Sequence record: OP172785
DNA length: 64,000 nt
Reading direction: 5' to 3' (one strand)
DNA from: Escherichia phage ECO07P2
Of this stretch, positions 10,036 to 33,367 are shown piece after piece (position 1 is the stretch's first letter; every line of letters begins with the position of its first letter). The notes below the pieces were generated by a model, which did not search any database, had not been told where the DNA came from, and was given only the letters and a program-made list of their open reading frames with translations. Both the position numbers and the translations under genes were made by a program.

Positions 10036-10692
10036 ATGGCAGCACCTAGAATATCATTTTCGCCCTCTGATATTCTGTTGGGTGTTCTAGATCGCTTGTT
10101 CAAAGATAACGCTACCGGGAAGGTTCTTGCTTCCCGGGTAGCTGTCGTAATTCTTTTATTTATGATGGCGATTGTTTGGTATAGGGGAGATAGTTTCTTT
10201 GAGTACTATAAGCAATCAAAGTATGAAACATACCGTGAAATTATTGAAAAGGAAAGAAATGCACGCTTTGAATCTGTCGCCCTGGAACAACTCCAGATAG
10301 TTCATATATCATCTGAGGCAGACTTTAGTGCGGTGTATTCTTTCCGCCCTAAAAACTTAAACTATTTTGTTGATATTATAGCATATGAAGGAAAATTACC
10401 TTCAACAATAAGTGAAAAATCACTTGGAGGATATCCTGTTGATAAAACTATGGATGAATATACAGTTCATTTAAATGGACGTCATTATTATTCCAACTCA
10501 AAATTTGCTTTTTTACCAACTAAAAAGCCTACTCCCGAAATAAATTACATGTACAGTTGTCCATATTTTAATTTGGATAACATCTATGCTGGAACAATAA
10601 CCATGTACTGGTATAGAAATGATCATATAAGTAATGACCGCCTTGAATCAATATGTTCTCAGGCGGCCAGAATATTAGGAAGGGCTAAATAA
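10036..10692 (+). CDS. t: holin T
   Basis: 218 aa, N-terminal TM segment VAVVILLFMMAIVWY, large C-terminal domain; length and position as T4 t. Confidence 0.9.
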   Translation: MAAPRISFSPSDILLGVLDRLFKDNATGKVLASRVAVVILLFMMAIVWYRGDSFFEYYKQSKYETYREIIEKERNARFESVALEQLQIVHISSEADFSAVYSFRPKNLNYFVDIIAYEGKLPSTISEKSLGGYPVDKTMDEYTVHLNGRHYYSNSKFAFLPTKKPTPEINYMYSCPYFNLDNIYAGTITMYWYRNDHISNDRLESICSQAARILGRAK

Positions 10693-10965
10693 TTATTTGT
10701 TCGTATACATCTCTAGATATCGATATACACTCTCAAAACCCTCGTTGAATTCGTCGATGAGGGTTTTCTTATCTTCTTGGGTTAATTCAGAAACAATTTT
10801 ACGGAATGAATTCTGATTTAACTTTCTACCTTCATGCGTTACTCCAATCTCATTCAGAAATGCAATAAAATTAGCACGATTCTCAACAATATCTTCTCTG
10901 GAAAATTTAATCAAAATAGACGCAACAGTAATAATTTCACGAACTGTATCAATGTTTTTATTCAT
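10693..10965 (-). CDS. asiA: anti-sigma70 factor AsiA
   Basis: 90 aa MNKNIDTVREIITVASILIKFSREDIVENRANFIAFLNEIGVTHEG... matches remembered T4 AsiA. Confidence 0.9.
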   Translation of the reverse strand: MNKNIDTVREIITVASILIKFSREDIVENRANFIAFLNEIGVTHEGRKLNQNSFRKIVSELTQEDKKTLIDEFNEGFESVYRYLEMYTNK

Positions 10966-12784: not shown

Positions 12785-13420
12785 TCACAGTTCAGATGCT
12801 ACGGTGATTACTGCTTCAATGTTTTCTGCCGAGCGTTTAATGTCAAGATACACATTACCATTTTTAGCGATTTTGCATGACATACCGATGTCAGTAAATT
12901 TCTGAATATGATGTTCCATCATTTTGTATCCAAAAATTCGCATATTTCCATTGTTGTTAATTTCAAAATTACGAATTCCGTGAGTGCGTTTTTCTAAAAT
13001 AGCGAGATAGTTACTACGATAAGTTTCAACTTTTTTAAGAACAAATCCATTTTCATCTAAAAGTTTTAACATGAAATCTTTATCTTCTTCCATATCAGAA
13101 GTAATCTCGCGAGCTTTACGAGTTGCTCGTTTTTTCAGTAGTTCCGGAGCATTTTCCTGTGCGTATAAAGTTGCCGCGTTTGAAATAATATCCTGAGCTT
13201 CACCAGTAATGATTAATCCATCACCAGATTTCTCCACCAGGCCTTTTTTAATCAATACCCCAATATTACTATTAACTACTGCATTACCTAAATCTGGATG
13301 CACCTCACGAACTTCTGCAGCTGTAATGAAATCTTTCTTAGCAATGGTAATTAAAATCGCAGCAGTTTTTTCATTCAGAACATCGTTAGAAGCTTTGATG
13401 ATGTAAGTTACTTTAGACAT
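12785..13420 (-). CDS. motA: middle-promoter transcription activator MotA
   Basis: 211 aa MSKVTYIIKASNDVLNEKTA... matches remembered T4 MotA length and sequence. Confidence 0.9.
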   Translation of the reverse strand: MSKVTYIIKASNDVLNEKTAAILITIAKKDFITAAEVREVHPDLGNAVVNSNIGVLIKKGLVEKSGDGLIITGEAQDIISNAATLYAQENAPELLKKRATRKAREITSDMEEDKDFMLKLLDENGFVLKKVETYRSNYLAILEKRTHGIRNFEINNNGNMRIFGYKMMEHHIQKFTDIGMSCKIAKNGNVYLDIKRSAENIEAVITVASEL

Positions 13421-28107: not shown

Positions 28108-29427
28108 TCATACGTAAAACACATCATAACGACCACGTGTTACACCAACATAAAGAAGCTGCTGAGCTAGTTCAGCATCTGCATAATGAATACAAGGCGT
28201 ATAGATAAAAGCACGGTCTACAGACATGCCCTGAGCTTTGTGGAATGTTGATGCAGGAAGTGCTTTCACTTTACTAAACTGCGATTTAGCATCCCAAAAA
28301 TCACTCCATGGAGCTTTTCCACCTTTATTCCAATTTTTATAAGTTTCTGCCGTTTTACCTAAAAATAAGTTAAACTTATACAGCTCTTCATCAGATGAAA
28401 TTATTTTAATCTTTTCACGATAATATTCATCATCGCCGTAAGTTTCTACTGTTAAATCCCAATGACGAATTAGATATTCTCCAGGAACACCACGAGCTTT
28501 AACAAATGTTGATGTATACTCTGCTTCTATAATACGAACTAATTGTCCGTTATTAAAAATAATTTCTGACACAGGCTTTCCATCAATTTTATATGTTTTA
28601 ATTAATGGTTCCTGCATTACAATAATTTCACCAACGATAAAATCTTTATCAGTTTCAAAAATCTTTTTGCGAATAATGCTATTTAACTTGTCAACAGATT
28701 TATTCGTAAATGCCATTACGCGATTTTCAAACAAATCATCTAGTGATTTTACGATTGAAAAATAATTTACCATAAAATCGCGTAAAGCGGTATCACCAGT
28801 AAATCCACGTACTCCATGCCCGTCAACAATTTTATCATAAATCCACTTACCATTACGAACATCAGTAGCTACATCAATAATAGGAGCATTACTGCGTTTA
28901 ACTTCAGTGAGTTCACACTGATAAAAATCTTTATGTGTAAAGAATGGACTGATATAAGCAGTGTTTTCTCCTGGGTCAACAGGTCTAATTTGCTTATTAT
29001 CACCTATTCCAATTATAGTACACCATGGTGGAATAGTTGAAAGCAAAATTTTAAATAGCTTTCTATCATACATTGACACTTCGTCGCAGATTAATACTCT
29101 GCATTTAGCCAAATCCGGTACTTCTTTTTGCTCAAAAAGAACGTTTTCTTCATATGTTACTGGGTTAATTTTGAGAATACTGTGAATAGTACTCGCTTCT
29201 TTCCCTGACAGTTTTGAAAGAATCTTTTTAGCTGCATGAGTAGGAGCTGCTAAAATAATGCCAGTTTCGCCAGTAGATATTAAGGCTTCAATGATGAACT
29301 TAGTAAGAGTAGTCTTACCAGTACCAGCAGGTCCATTAATAGTTACATGATGTTTCTTTTCTTTGATAGCCCTCATAACGATGTTAAAGGCATTTTTCTG
29401 GCCTTCAGTCAAATCATCAAATGTCAT
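28108..29427 (-). CDS. dda: Dda DNA helicase (SF1)
   Basis: 439 aa (T4 Dda 439 aa), Walker A GPAGTGKTT. Confidence 0.9.
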   Translation of the reverse strand: MTFDDLTEGQKNAFNIVMRAIKEKKHHVTINGPAGTGKTTLTKFIIEALISTGETGIILAAPTHAAKKILSKLSGKEASTIHSILKINPVTYEENVLFEQKEVPDLAKCRVLICDEVSMYDRKLFKILLSTIPPWCTIIGIGDNKQIRPVDPGENTAYISPFFTHKDFYQCELTEVKRSNAPIIDVATDVRNGKWIYDKIVDGHGVRGFTGDTALRDFMVNYFSIVKSLDDLFENRVMAFTNKSVDKLNSIIRKKIFETDKDFIVGEIIVMQEPLIKTYKIDGKPVSEIIFNNGQLVRIIEAEYTSTFVKARGVPGEYLIRHWDLTVETYGDDEYYREKIKIISSDEELYKFNLFLGKTAETYKNWNKGGKAPWSDFWDAKSQFSKVKALPASTFHKAQGMSVDRAFIYTPCIHYADAELAQQLLYVGVTRGRYDVFYV

Positions 29428-29735
29428 CGTAAATTCCCTGCAATTGGTATACTAACAATACGCCCAGTATCTAAAATTCGCCGATATAATCTTTGCGTGT
29501 CTACATCAGGCTTAACGTGTTTAACTTCTATTTTATTAAACCAAAACTTGCGTGGAGTCTCAACTAATCTCGGAATTCCCATACCTAAAGCTAGTCGATA
29601 CTGCTCTTTAAGAGTTGTAAAAACTTTATCAGCAATCTCCCTTTCAAAAAATACAGCAGGACGATGTTCATCAAGCGGAACAGGCACCGCAAATCCATCT
29701 TTATCTCTATACACTATCGCATATACATAAAACAT
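29424..29735 (-). CDS. hypothetical protein (103 aa)
   Basis: ORF; ATGA overlap with dda. Confidence 0.5.
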   Translation of the reverse strand: MFYVYAIVYRDKDGFAVPVPLDEHRPAVFFEREIADKVFTTLKEQYRLALGMGIPRLVETPRKFWFNKIEVKHVKPDVDTQRLYRRILDTGRIVSIPIAGNLR

Positions 29736-29736
29736 A

Positions 29737-30483
29737 TTATCCTCGGATAAGTTTAAAAATTGAACAATTTAGCGGGTATCCTCTTTTCAGTTTAAGTTTA
29801 TCAATAAAAGACAAGTTTTGATACCGCTCTACACCTTGAATAATTTTATCACACATATCATATTGCATTTCTGCTTCTGACAACTTTTTCACGGTTTTCC
29901 AATCCGAGCCTTTAAGAAGAACGTTCAATTTAACAACTTCAGCGCCTTCTGCTATACGAGAACCATCAATACGAGCTTTGAGTGCTATAATCGTTAGCTT
30001 AACGTCAGAAGTTTGTTTTGATTTAGAAAGCTGAGAAATGTGCTCAATTCGGTTTTCACGTTTTTTCTGTATAGCTTTAATTTGATTATAAGTCTTTTTG
30101 ATTTTAGCCCATTTCTTTTCATCTAAATTTAGTTTATGAACTTTTTTCGCAGATGAACGACCAATTCGCAAAGCAAATAAATCACGCTTTTCAATCAACT
30201 CTTCTAAAGTATAATCAGAACGAAATGTATTATACTTTTTCTTTACTGCAATAACATTCCCTTTAATGTATCCAACGTTATTATCAAAACGTTCTAATGA
30301 TAATTTCTCTCCTTCAATACGATTATCAAAAGGTTCTCCTGAGTAAGCGCAAACTTTCTGATCTAAAATGTTCTTAATGTAATTGAAGTCTAAGTTAAAA
30401 TCTTTAGAACGTCTTTTGGCAGATGCCTGAGTGTGCTCTAGACGACGTGTAATTTTACGAATTTGATTATTAGACAGTTTCAT
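29737..30483 (-). CDS. srd: Srd, sigma-like early protein
   Basis: 248 aa basic protein between dda and modA as in T4. Confidence 0.7.
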   Translation of the reverse strand: MKLSNNQIRKITRRLEHTQASAKRRSKDFNLDFNYIKNILDQKVCAYSGEPFDNRIEGEKLSLERFDNNVGYIKGNVIAVKKKYNTFRSDYTLEELIEKRDLFALRIGRSSAKKVHKLNLDEKKWAKIKKTYNQIKAIQKKRENRIEHISQLSKSKQTSDVKLTIIALKARIDGSRIAEGAEVVKLNVLLKGSDWKTVKKLSEAEMQYDMCDKIIQGVERYQNLSFIDKLKLKRGYPLNCSIFKLIRG

Positions 30484-30512
30484 ATTTTTCTCACGGACGG
30501 TTAACTACTTAT

Positions 30513-30542
30513 ACTATAACATTTTTACTTCAGCTTGTAAAC
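30513..30542 (-). promoter_or_regulatory. early promoter upstream of srd
   Basis: GTTTAC 30537-30542, TATAGT 30513-30518. Confidence 0.55.
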
Positions 30543-30556
30543 AACTTTATGAAAAA

Positions 30557-30581
30557 TGCTTTAAAACTTTCATGGTATAAT
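30557..30581 (+). promoter_or_regulatory. MotA-box middle-promoter-like element on the plus strand, antisense to modA/modB
   Basis: Plus strand TGCTTTA (30557-30563), 12 nt, TATAAT (30576-30581); perfect match to middle-promoter architecture but opposite to all neighbouring genes. Confidence 0.4.
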
Positions 30582-30598
30582 GAATCTAAGTCCTTCCA

Positions 30599-31201
30599 TT
30601 ATAGATTAAATCCTTCAAAATCAAGAGTATAGATAGTGTATGTTGAATACTTTTTATACTCGTATCTATCAGCAATTCTAAATACACTTCCAGCTGGTAT
30701 CATTACTTCTTGTTCATCTGAAACTAATTCCATATTACGATAACGGTGGCTATCTGGAAACTTAAAACTTGGACTATATTCTTTACAACGTAAAGCTTTT
30801 ATAGCATACTCCTGGAAATTAAACACCATAGGAGCTTTGAATTCAAAAATAACTTGCGTGTTGTATTCTAATCCAGAAGCAAAATGTAGAGCTATATTTT
30901 TATCATATGAAGCTGATACTACTTTATCAAATGTAATAATATCAATTCCTTGATTTAACACCTGCTTAGTCTCAACTGGAACACCTCTCCAAAGAGGTTT
31001 ATCGTTTGGAACCAAACGAGATTTGATTATTTCATTTAACCAAGAATGATCGTCTGGCTTATTAGTAATACAATGAATTAAAAGTTCAATTTCGGATAAA
31101 TTAAATCCTTCAGAAAGTAATTCTTCACGAATAGAAGCACGCACAGATGCATCCATTGATTTGATTTTAAAATCTTTTAATTGCATTGCTGAATATTTCA
31201 T
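30599..31201 (-). CDS. modA: ADP-ribosyltransferase ModA
   Basis: 200 aa (T4 ModA 200 aa), paralog of adjacent ModB. Confidence 0.8.
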   Translation of the reverse strand: MKYSAMQLKDFKIKSMDASVRASIREELLSEGFNLSEIELLIHCITNKPDDHSWLNEIIKSRLVPNDKPLWRGVPVETKQVLNQGIDIITFDKVVSASYDKNIALHFASGLEYNTQVIFEFKAPMVFNFQEYAIKALRCKEYSPSFKFPDSHRYRNMELVSDEQEVMIPAGSVFRIADRYEYKKYSTYTIYTLDFEGFNL

Positions 31202-31821
31202 TCAACTACCTCAATATCATACACTTTAAATGTTCCAAATGAATCGTGTAATTTTTCTTTTGAAATAGAAGTTATTTTATACTTTCCAATTGGAATCATC
31301 CATTCTTGTTCACGTACAATCATCATTAAGTTATCAGTACGTTCTGAATCTAATCCATCAGTATCTTCATATGTATACTTAAACTCAGTATTAGGAGAAG
31401 AAAGTATAATATCGCTGATATGGTCAGAGTAATTAAAAGCTTTATCAGTTTTTAAGCGAAGTATTGTGTCAGTGAAATATTCGGCATAAGAAAAAGAACA
31501 CGCTGTATGCAAACTAGTAGTAAATGAATCTACTCTGTTCGTTGAAAACACTTCTCCGACTTGTAAATCTTTAATGAGTTCTTTTGTCGATTTTGATATA
31601 CCACGATATAGCTGATAAGGCGATTTAGTTAAATGCTTTTTAACGATTTTATTCAACTGCTGATGAAGAGCTTCATTCTTTTTGGCTTCCATACATTGCC
31701 AAAGAACTGACTGTTCAAAGTCAGTAAATTTTTCACAGACCTTTTTATACATATCATATTGAAAATCGACACTTTCAGCTTTTATAGATAACTGTTCAAC
31801 ATCTGCAAGATTAATAATCAT
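31198..31821 (-). CDS. modB: ADP-ribosyltransferase ModB
   Basis: 207 aa (T4 ModB 207 aa), ATGA overlap with modA. Confidence 0.8.
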   Translation of the reverse strand: MIINLADVEQLSIKAESVDFQYDMYKKVCEKFTDFEQSVLWQCMEAKKNEALHQQLNKIVKKHLTKSPYQLYRGISKSTKELIKDLQVGEVFSTNRVDSFTTSLHTACSFSYAEYFTDTILRLKTDKAFNYSDHISDIILSSPNTEFKYTYEDTDGLDSERTDNLMMIVREQEWMIPIGKYKITSISKEKLHDSFGTFKVYDIEVVE

Positions 31822-31847
31822 GATAGCCTCCGTATACTTCAGAAGCT

Positions 31848-31877
31848 ATCATATCATTGTTAGGAAGGAAAGTAAAC
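31848..31877 (-). promoter_or_regulatory. early promoter upstream of modB
   Basis: GTTTAC 31872-31877, TATGAT 31848-31853. Confidence 0.5.
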
Positions 31878-32907: not shown

Positions 32908-33367
32908 TTGTTTTACCTAAAACAACAGTAGGAGCATCGTCAAATTTATGAATTTTTAGCAATTTTGGATTTAAATTATTCCATACATAATAAATGAAGT
33001 ATGATAAAGCATCTTCACTCGCAATTATAAATTTATTTCCTTTATCTATTTTCCAGTCATATACTGAATCGTACGAATAAAAAGATAAAGGGTTATCATT
33101 ATATTGTTCTGCGCTAACATTGATGTATTCGGATTTAGTAAATGCTTCAATTGCTCTAAACGGACTATTTGGCACAGTTTCAATAATTCCGATCTTTTTA
33201 AGTTTTATTTCAGCATCTTCTGGAACTGGCATTGAAACAAAATTTTCTACGAGATACATTGGGTCACAATAACCCTTATCAATCATTACTGCTACGGTAA
33301 TTGGAACGTCTTTAGCAAACGACATACTATTACTGCTAATATACATTTCAAACAAAATCGCTTCCAT
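32882..33367 (-). CDS. hypothetical protein (161 aa from MEAILF), possibly Mrh
   Basis: Length and position match T4 mrh; sequence identity not verified. Confidence 0.4.

Follow-up and report, generated by a model that had tools for sequence, protein, structure and literature searches.

A conserved, probable MotA-type middle promoter predicted to fire antisense into modA and modB of T4-like phages

The srd-modA spacer and its surroundings

The window, by which we mean the whole stretch of DNA analysed here (64,000 nucleotides from Escherichia phage ECO07P2, record OP172785), is a segment of a Tequatrovirus genome. It is 98.8% identical to phage ECO07P1 and, in the modA/srd region, ~94–97% identical to T4. 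The genes of interest all lie on the minus strand: dda (28108–29427), dda.1 (29424–29735), srd (29737–30483), modA (30599–31201) and modB (31198–31821). ModA is the RNA polymerase alpha ADP-ribosyltransferase, and its gene is the presumed target of the element described below; modB, which also encodes an ADP-ribosyltransferase, is a possible further target. An early promoter upstream of modB (31848–31876, minus strand), with its −35 and −10 annotated in X98695, is the source of the sense transcripts that would converge on the element. An earlier note on this DNA had stated that all surrounding genes are on the minus strand. This holds, as the nearest plus-strand gene, the holin gene t, ends at position 10692, ~20 kb away. 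The activator expected at a middle promoter, MotA, is represented by a 211-aa open reading frame (12785–13420, minus strand) whose homologues are annotated as MotA in other phages, and the co-activator AsiA by a 90-aa open reading frame at the T4 asiA position (10693–10965, minus strand).

The 115-nt spacer between srd and modA contains, on the plus strand at 30557–30581, the sequence TGCTTTA-AAACTTTCATGG-TATAAT. This is the motif that the earlier note had described (TGCTTTA, 12 nt, TATAAT), and the sequence is as claimed; the TGn at T30573-G30574 comes in addition. According to two published accounts (PMC2988021; PMC1524935), T4 middle promoters share the consensus (a/t)(a/t)(a/t)TGCTT(t/c)A at −30, followed by a gap of 11–13 bp and a sigma-70 −10 element with an optional TGn. 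The putative MotA box, AAATGCTTTA (30554–30563, plus strand), fits this consensus at 10 of 10 positions and is centred near −30 of the predicted start. The −10 hexamer TATAAT (30576–30581, plus strand) is perfect and lies 12 nt past the box. It is preceded by the extended −10 trinucleotide TGG (30573–30575, plus strand), which is invariant in 13 Tequatrovirus sequences, and only some of the other genera have a TGn. By the rule that transcription starts at the 7th nucleotide after the −10, the predicted start is A30588 on the plus strand (±1 nt; T4 equivalent ~11897, plus strand), which is 11 nt outside the modA stop codon (30599–30601) on the opposite strand.

A sigma-70 −35 hexamer was not found at 16–18 bp from the −10, where AAAATG, AAATGC and AAAAAT agree with TTGACA at only 0–1 of 6 positions, and the site was not returned by a sigma-70 promoter scan of the window. 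All sequence features of a middle promoter are present, including the box, the 11–13 bp gap to a TAnnnT −10, the lack of a −35 element, and the presence of motA and asiA in the same genome.

The same spacer holds the early promoter of srd (30513–30541, minus strand), which consists of TTTACA (30541–30536), 17 nt, a TGn and TATAGT (30518–30513), with a start near A30506. It is annotated in the T4 record X98695 and predicted in phage fPS-90, and it stands back to back with the candidate antisense promoter. The predicted A start agrees with a study that ranks srd with the most abundant NAD-capped RNAs of T4 (bioRxiv 10.1101/2024.04.04.588121). A further TATAAT, on the sense strand, overlaps the modA stop codon (30598–30603, minus strand) at 16 bp from the antisense −10 and has a poor −35 (TTGATT at 15 bp). 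Perhaps it is what remains of an early promoter facing the antisense element, as found in Karamvirus and Gelderlandvirus.

Chance expectation, calibration in T4 and conservation

By chance, the exact pattern would occur 0.01 times per window, both strands taken together, and only 1 of 100 shuffled sequences had a match. A relaxed version of the pattern gave 9 matches in the window against 1.6 expected, mostly on the gene strand. In a graded scan of both strands of the 64 kb the site ranked first. It was also the sole full-consensus match on the plus strand, and the remaining full-consensus sites were all on the gene strand.

How well the motif predicts promoters was calibrated in T4, using a stringent rule (perfect TGCTT[TC]A, a gap of 11–13 nt, and a −10 correct at 5 or more of 6 positions) and 66 kb of the genome (1–46000 and 149000–168903). 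Seven sites were recovered, namely the present one, which is identical in T4, and six on the minus strand. These six are PmobB, P46i(2), P45.2, P45, PrIIB2 and P34i, and their predicted starts are within 0–1 nt of the mapped starts (Table 1 of PMC2988021). The positive predictive value of the rule was thus 6/6 on every other T4 match.

Within Tequatrovirus, the element is far less variable than its surroundings. Among 13 sequences, variation affects a single one of the 15 positions of the element (box core, TG and −10), namely the T/C position that is degenerate in the consensus (the box of phiD1 reads TGCTTCA). Outside the element 35 of 111 columns vary, spacer and indel columns included; of the 9 spacer positions, 2 vary. 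A search of IMG/VR for relatives with ModA yielded only six near-identical loci, which are of little use beyond Tequatrovirus.

In other genera the mod-srd spacer is too diverged for blastn, and the spacer sequence and flanks are unalignable. Nonetheless, ten lineages keep TGCTTT, 12–13 nt and (G)GTATAATG just 3′ of the mod gene, directed into mod. Outside Tequatrovirus, and in every case on the strand antisense to mod, the boxes, gaps and −10 regions with the bases that follow are AAATGCTTTA, 13 nt, TATAATGG in Mosigvirus; TAACGCTTTT, 12 nt, TATAATGG in Gaprivervirus TH57; TTTTGCTTTA, 12 nt, TATAATGA in Dhakavirus QL01; ATATGCTTTT, 13 nt, TATAATGG in Karamvirus CC31; CTGTGCTTTA, 13 nt, TATAATGA in Winklervirus Virsaitis27; ATTTGCTTTT, 13 nt, TATAATGG in Gelderlandvirus S16; AAATGCTTTC, 13 nt, TATAATGG in Klebsiella phage Roth01; and ATTTGCTTTA, 13 nt, TATAATGG in both Klebsiella phage kv_tblp2 and Citrobacter phage Ursula. 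The TGCTTT core is found in 9 of the 10 lineages, Gaprivervirus having CGCTTT, and a perfect TATAAT followed by G in all 10. A single match, counting both strands, was present in each ~3.5-kb locus, every time at the same syntenic place and in the same orientation, against a background for the relaxed cross-genus pattern of 2 per 128,000 strand-bases of the window. The earlier note had proposed a comparison with related phages as a check on its claim, and had named a lack of conservation as one outcome that would refute it; the element proved to be identical in T4 and kept in ten lineages, and the claim thus survives this check.

Information per column peaks at (T)GCTTT and at (G)GTATAATG, while the spacer between them is fixed in length (12–13 nt) and free in sequence. 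This is the signature of a putative two-part protein-binding site, and not of general conservation or of an RNA helix. Only three things are constant across the genera: the promoter elements, their direction toward mod and their location right behind its stop codon. Conservation also runs 4–10 nt past the −10, with the pattern G[GA][TA]T[CT].AAGG. These bases go beyond the needs of a simple promoter model and may point to an extra or different constraint.

The element appears to travel with mod. In kv_tblp2, where srd is set apart from the element by an inserted dmd, the element remains immediately 3′ of the mod gene. In Krischvirus Ec_Makalu_002 the modB-srd synteny is present and the element is absent. 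For its relative RB49, one study reports that neither a motA orthologue nor a middle-promoter consensus was found (PMC1524935). Together, the absence from Krischvirus and the lack of motA in RB49 are in line with MotA dependence. Acinetobacter phage 133, Pseudomonas phage PspYZU05 and Morganella phage Rgz1, in which srd has no mod gene next to it, likewise lack the element. As ModA homologues are confined to enterobacterial T4-like phages, the MotA-positive phages of Aeromonas and Acinetobacter are uninformative about linkage to mod as distinct from linkage to srd.

One look-alike was not counted. Upstream of srd in Acinetobacter phage Mokit we found TGCTTTA, 14 nt, TATAATGG, with a spacer outside the 11–13 nt range and no adjoining mod gene. 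At ~1205–1247 of its locus this site reads ACTTGCTTTA, 14 nt, TATAATGGTTCTAC, in antisense orientation, and the neighbouring gene is annotated as a potential ADP-ribose glycohydrolase. Among the sampled enterobacterial phages, TH57 combines the most deviant box (CGCTTTT) with the most divergent MotA (32% identity to the protein of the window), a pairing that hints at co-variation of activator and box.

The position of the element relative to the srd early promoter differs among genera. The two promoters stand back to back in Tequatrovirus, Mosigvirus, Dhakavirus and Gaprivervirus, where the MotA box is ~14–15 bp upstream of the early −35. In Karamvirus, Winklervirus, Gelderlandvirus and Ursula, by contrast, the early promoter (TTTACA, 17 nt, TAGAAT or TAAACT) lies upstream of the element, and the two promoters are face to face with their −10 elements ~13 bp apart. 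In Gelderlandvirus S16 both predicted starts fall on the same base pair, as they do, with equal −10 spacing, in Ursula.

The srd leader itself shows several further features. A hairpin-forming 13-mer, CGTCCGTAAGA(C/T)G, immediately precedes the srd Shine-Dalgarno sequence in Tequatrovirus, Mosigvirus, Gaprivervirus and Dhakavirus (30484–30512, minus strand, in the window). Compared to T4, the window phage has a 7-nt deletion in this 13-mer (TCTCACGGACGG against TCTCACATCTTACGGACGG). In Roth01 the 13-mer forms the spacer of the antisense promoter. In Karamvirus, Winklervirus, Gelderlandvirus and Ursula, the srd leader has a 5′ AAUCCUU that is complementary to the srd Shine-Dalgarno sequence AAGGAUU ~45 nt downstream. 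Possibly, these two sequences form a stem that sequesters the Shine-Dalgarno sequence, with the complement of the antisense promoter in its loop.

The predicted antisense transcript and alternative readings

A transcript starting at A30588 would run across modA and possibly modB (30588–31821, plus strand), a span given by the geometry only. The geometry is that of a cis-antisense regulator, as the predicted transcript is complementary to the mRNA of its target, with the same arrangement in ten lineages. Among the lineages examined, no antisense open reading frame kept its position, frame, start codon or length. A search of Rfam with the window segment 29500–32500 gave no match at E ≤ 1, and the first 173 nt of the transcript are predicted to fold no better than shuffled sequence (z = −0.8). 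The transcript is best regarded as a putative non-coding antisense RNA. Its path revealed no convincing terminator, only weak hairpins embedded in coding sequence at 30983–31019 and 31706–31725. Unless stopped by Rho, it would meet the early promoter of modB ~1.3 kb away.

The earlier note had read the motif as a MotA-type middle promoter aimed antisense into modA and modB. Our results strongly support this reading: all sequence features of the class are present, the calibration in T4 was 6/6, and the element is conserved at the 3′ end of mod in ten lineages. The note's further suggestion, an antisense RNA that would damp the Mod enzymes at middle times, is plausible. We consider it probable (roughly 0.6) that the element, here called P_as(mod), is a genuine and maintained MotA/AsiA middle promoter that starts near A30588 on the plus strand, is convergent with early transcription of modB-modA and likely downregulates mod. 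From the sequence we infer that it fires in vivo, that firing depends on MotA, and that it affects modA and modB.

The proposed course of events would begin a minute or two after infection, when AsiA would remodel region 4 of sigma-70. MotA would bind AAATGCTTTA at about −30, and region 2 of sigma-70 would open TATAAT. The TGn of Tequatrovirus might permit some MotA-independent firing. Since TGn/−10 promoters are immune to inhibition by AsiA (PMC2988021), the Tequatrovirus version may already fire weakly before MotA accumulates. The resulting non-coding transcript from ~A30588 would be the full complement of the modA mRNA from its 3′ end onward. At middle times, the host-toxic mod genes would then be downregulated through collision of RNA polymerases, degradation of the sense-antisense duplex, or both. 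ModA has been described as highly toxic to E. coli (PMC2988021), which offers a rationale for limiting the expression of modA. Since the srd early promoter adjoins or overlaps the element in most lineages examined, occupation of the element should weaken that promoter as well. Conversely, the adjacent strong srd early promoter or strong convergent early transcription could each occlude P_as(mod).

More tentatively, these steps could be parts of a feedback or timing circuit. ModA and Alt would ADP-ribosylate both alpha C-terminal domains, which would free the UP element of srd. MotA/AsiA-RNA polymerase would then take the box, the antisense RNA would shut down modA and modB by collision and duplex decay, and the early promoter would be occluded. 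We regard this circuit as possible, although doubtful. If true, it would give T-even phages their first defined functional cis-antisense regulator. It would also provide a concrete shut-off mechanism for at least one early unit, and a self-limiting control on a toxic ADP-ribosyltransferase.

An alternative explanation, compatible with the antisense reading, might be that MotA/AsiA-RNA polymerase at the element serves to shut the srd early promoter at middle times, and that production of a useful RNA is not its main job. The shut-off mechanism of T4 early promoters has been described as unknown (PMC2988021), and both geometries lend themselves to such a switch. In the face-to-face genera, where the −10 elements are ~13 bp apart and the start base pair can be shared, the two open complexes would be mutually exclusive; in the back-to-back genera, the box falls within the UP-element zone at −51 to −57, ~14–15 bp upstream of the early −35. 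However, two geometries would be needed for one function, and the sole invariant is the orientation toward mod. Moreover, in kv_tblp2 the inserted dmd separates the element from the srd early promoter, and the element stays by mod. We therefore think occlusion rather unlikely to be the main role. The same geometry bears on the objection, raised in the earlier note, that the motif might lie inside a known minus-strand regulatory element. In the window this is partly so, in that the box occupies the UP-element zone of the srd early promoter. Yet an UP-element role cannot explain the conservation, since the element is downstream of the srd early promoter in Karamvirus, Winklervirus, Gelderlandvirus and Ursula. 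A broader form of this objection is that the conserved bases serve the sense strand, as an UP element of srd, a signal in the modA 3′-UTR or srd 5′-UTR, or a hairpin that sequesters the Shine-Dalgarno sequence, and that the resemblance to a promoter is coincidental. The Tequatrovirus box indeed overlaps a reasonable UP-element match, and the AAUCCUU/AAGGAUU complementarity in srd leaders of the Karamvirus, Gelderlandvirus and Ursula type could explain the conserved bases past the −10. Nevertheless, relative to the early promoter the element is on the upstream side in four genera and on the downstream side in others, so that it cannot be an UP element throughout. TATAAT and TGCTTT would fall in the loop of the hairpin, and TGCTTT and (G)GTATAATG with a free spacer of fixed length suggest a two-part protein site. 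Together with the 6/6 other matches to the motif that are real promoters, this makes a sense-strand function improbable.

Two other roles would retain the promoter but assign a different purpose to its transcript. It might act as an R-loop replication origin or primer promoter of the oriF/oriG type, where a MotA-dependent transcript annealed in an A+T-rich unwinding element would prime rightward leading-strand synthesis. Both oriF and oriG consist of a middle promoter with a downstream unwinding element (PMC3016281), oriG (P34i) is also antisense to its resident gene, and the region downstream of the predicted start is A+T-rich. However, all T4 DNA is A+T-rich, so that this feature does not discriminate, and the strict linkage to mod would be unexpected for an origin. 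Furthermore, the mapped T4 origins are oriA (16763, leftward), oriC, oriE, oriF and oriG (152947), with none at 11.9 kb; a connection with oriA was rejected, as oriA is ~4.9 kb off and leftward. An origin is thus very improbable. Alternatively, the promoter might serve a small protein encoded antisense within modA. A GTG-initiated open reading frame of 35 codons (30636–30743) begins 49 nt past the predicted start, but it has no Shine-Dalgarno sequence at a suitable spacing, no such frame is conserved, and phage ESCO47 has no antisense frame of at least 25 codons there, so that we give this explanation hardly any credence.

Relation to known promoters and antisense RNAs

The candidate antisense promoter shares its architecture with T4 middle promoters such as P45, P45.2, PrIIB2, PmobB and PuvsX, and its sequence is as good as or better than these mapped examples. 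It differs from them in that it lies on the strand opposite to all surrounding early and middle genes, with no gene downstream, and in that its activity is predicted only. The closest functional analogue within T4 is P34i/oriG, likewise a consensus middle promoter antisense to the gene it faces, and recovered by the same rule. Yet P34i lies inside the late gene 34, points in the usual direction of early and middle transcription and is part of an R-loop origin, whereas the present element points against that direction, lies at the 3′ end of an early gene and coincides with no mapped origin.

The site is not among the 58 mapped T4 middle promoters in the table of 2010 (PMC2988021), which has no entry between Pdda.1 (11138) and P56/69 (16813). 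Its absence, despite motif-guided searches by others, may mean that the site was tested and found silent, or that it was never examined because of its strand. The RB69 (Mosigvirus) genome does have a listed orthologue, Pm:12081 (plus strand), with AAATGCTTTA, 13 nt and TATAAT in the srd-modA spacer. It was given as an HMM prediction with a low score of 7.9 and the remark '1 bp ins', without comment (Nolan et al., 2006; PMC1524935, Additional file 4), and the accessible part of the article text contains no discussion of it, no experiment and no cross-genus comparison. In view of this listing, the bare prediction of such a site is not entirely new. Our full-text literature search returned no report of a plus-strand promoter or antisense RNA at modA, of the T4 site, or of its conservation across genera. 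The T4 site is very probably a real middle promoter that has so far escaped mapping, an addition to a known promoter class in a conserved and unusual antisense position.

Cis-antisense RNAs and convergent promoters that fire back into their target from near its 3′ end are familiar from other phages, for example OOP and paQ of lambda and sar of P22. In comparison with these phage RNAs, the predicted switch would here be the phage's own middle-stage activator and the targets would be ADP-ribosyltransferase genes, and the antisense RNA is a predicted one. Within T4, the antisense transcripts of gene 32 (PMC2988021; PMC3014915) are alike in that their promoter near the 3′ end of the target fires back into it. 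A dRNA-seq study of T4 reported 150 transcription starts, of which 22 were antisense (bioRxiv 10.1101/2024.04.04.588121). As of 2010, according to a review, T4 had no functionally characterised trans-acting regulatory RNA or riboswitch (PMC3014915).

Work on sigma appropriation takes T4 as its reference system, and the catalogue of T4 middle promoters has been built up over decades; an unlisted, conserved promoter running counter to the usual direction would extend this catalogue. Antisense control in T-even phages would gain its first strong candidate in the element. It might offer a handle on two open points, namely how the toxic ModA and ModB are limited and how particular early promoters are switched off. 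It is also relevant to the engineering and annotation of T4-like therapeutic phages, where the srd-modA spacer is treated as empty.

Three minor observations concern the gene strand of the neighbourhood. Near-consensus MotA-type sites are found inside modA (30773–30800, minus strand; AAAAGCTTTA, 12 nt, TATAGT) and in the srh/mrh area (32987–33014, minus strand; AGATGCTTTA, 12 nt, TATTAT), and neither has a matching entry in the published table of T4 middle promoters. Just upstream of modB, a 14-bp hairpin (31819–31853, minus strand) includes the Shine-Dalgarno sequence GGAGG and the ATG start codon, and appears to be a sequestering structure for the translation initiation region of this gene.
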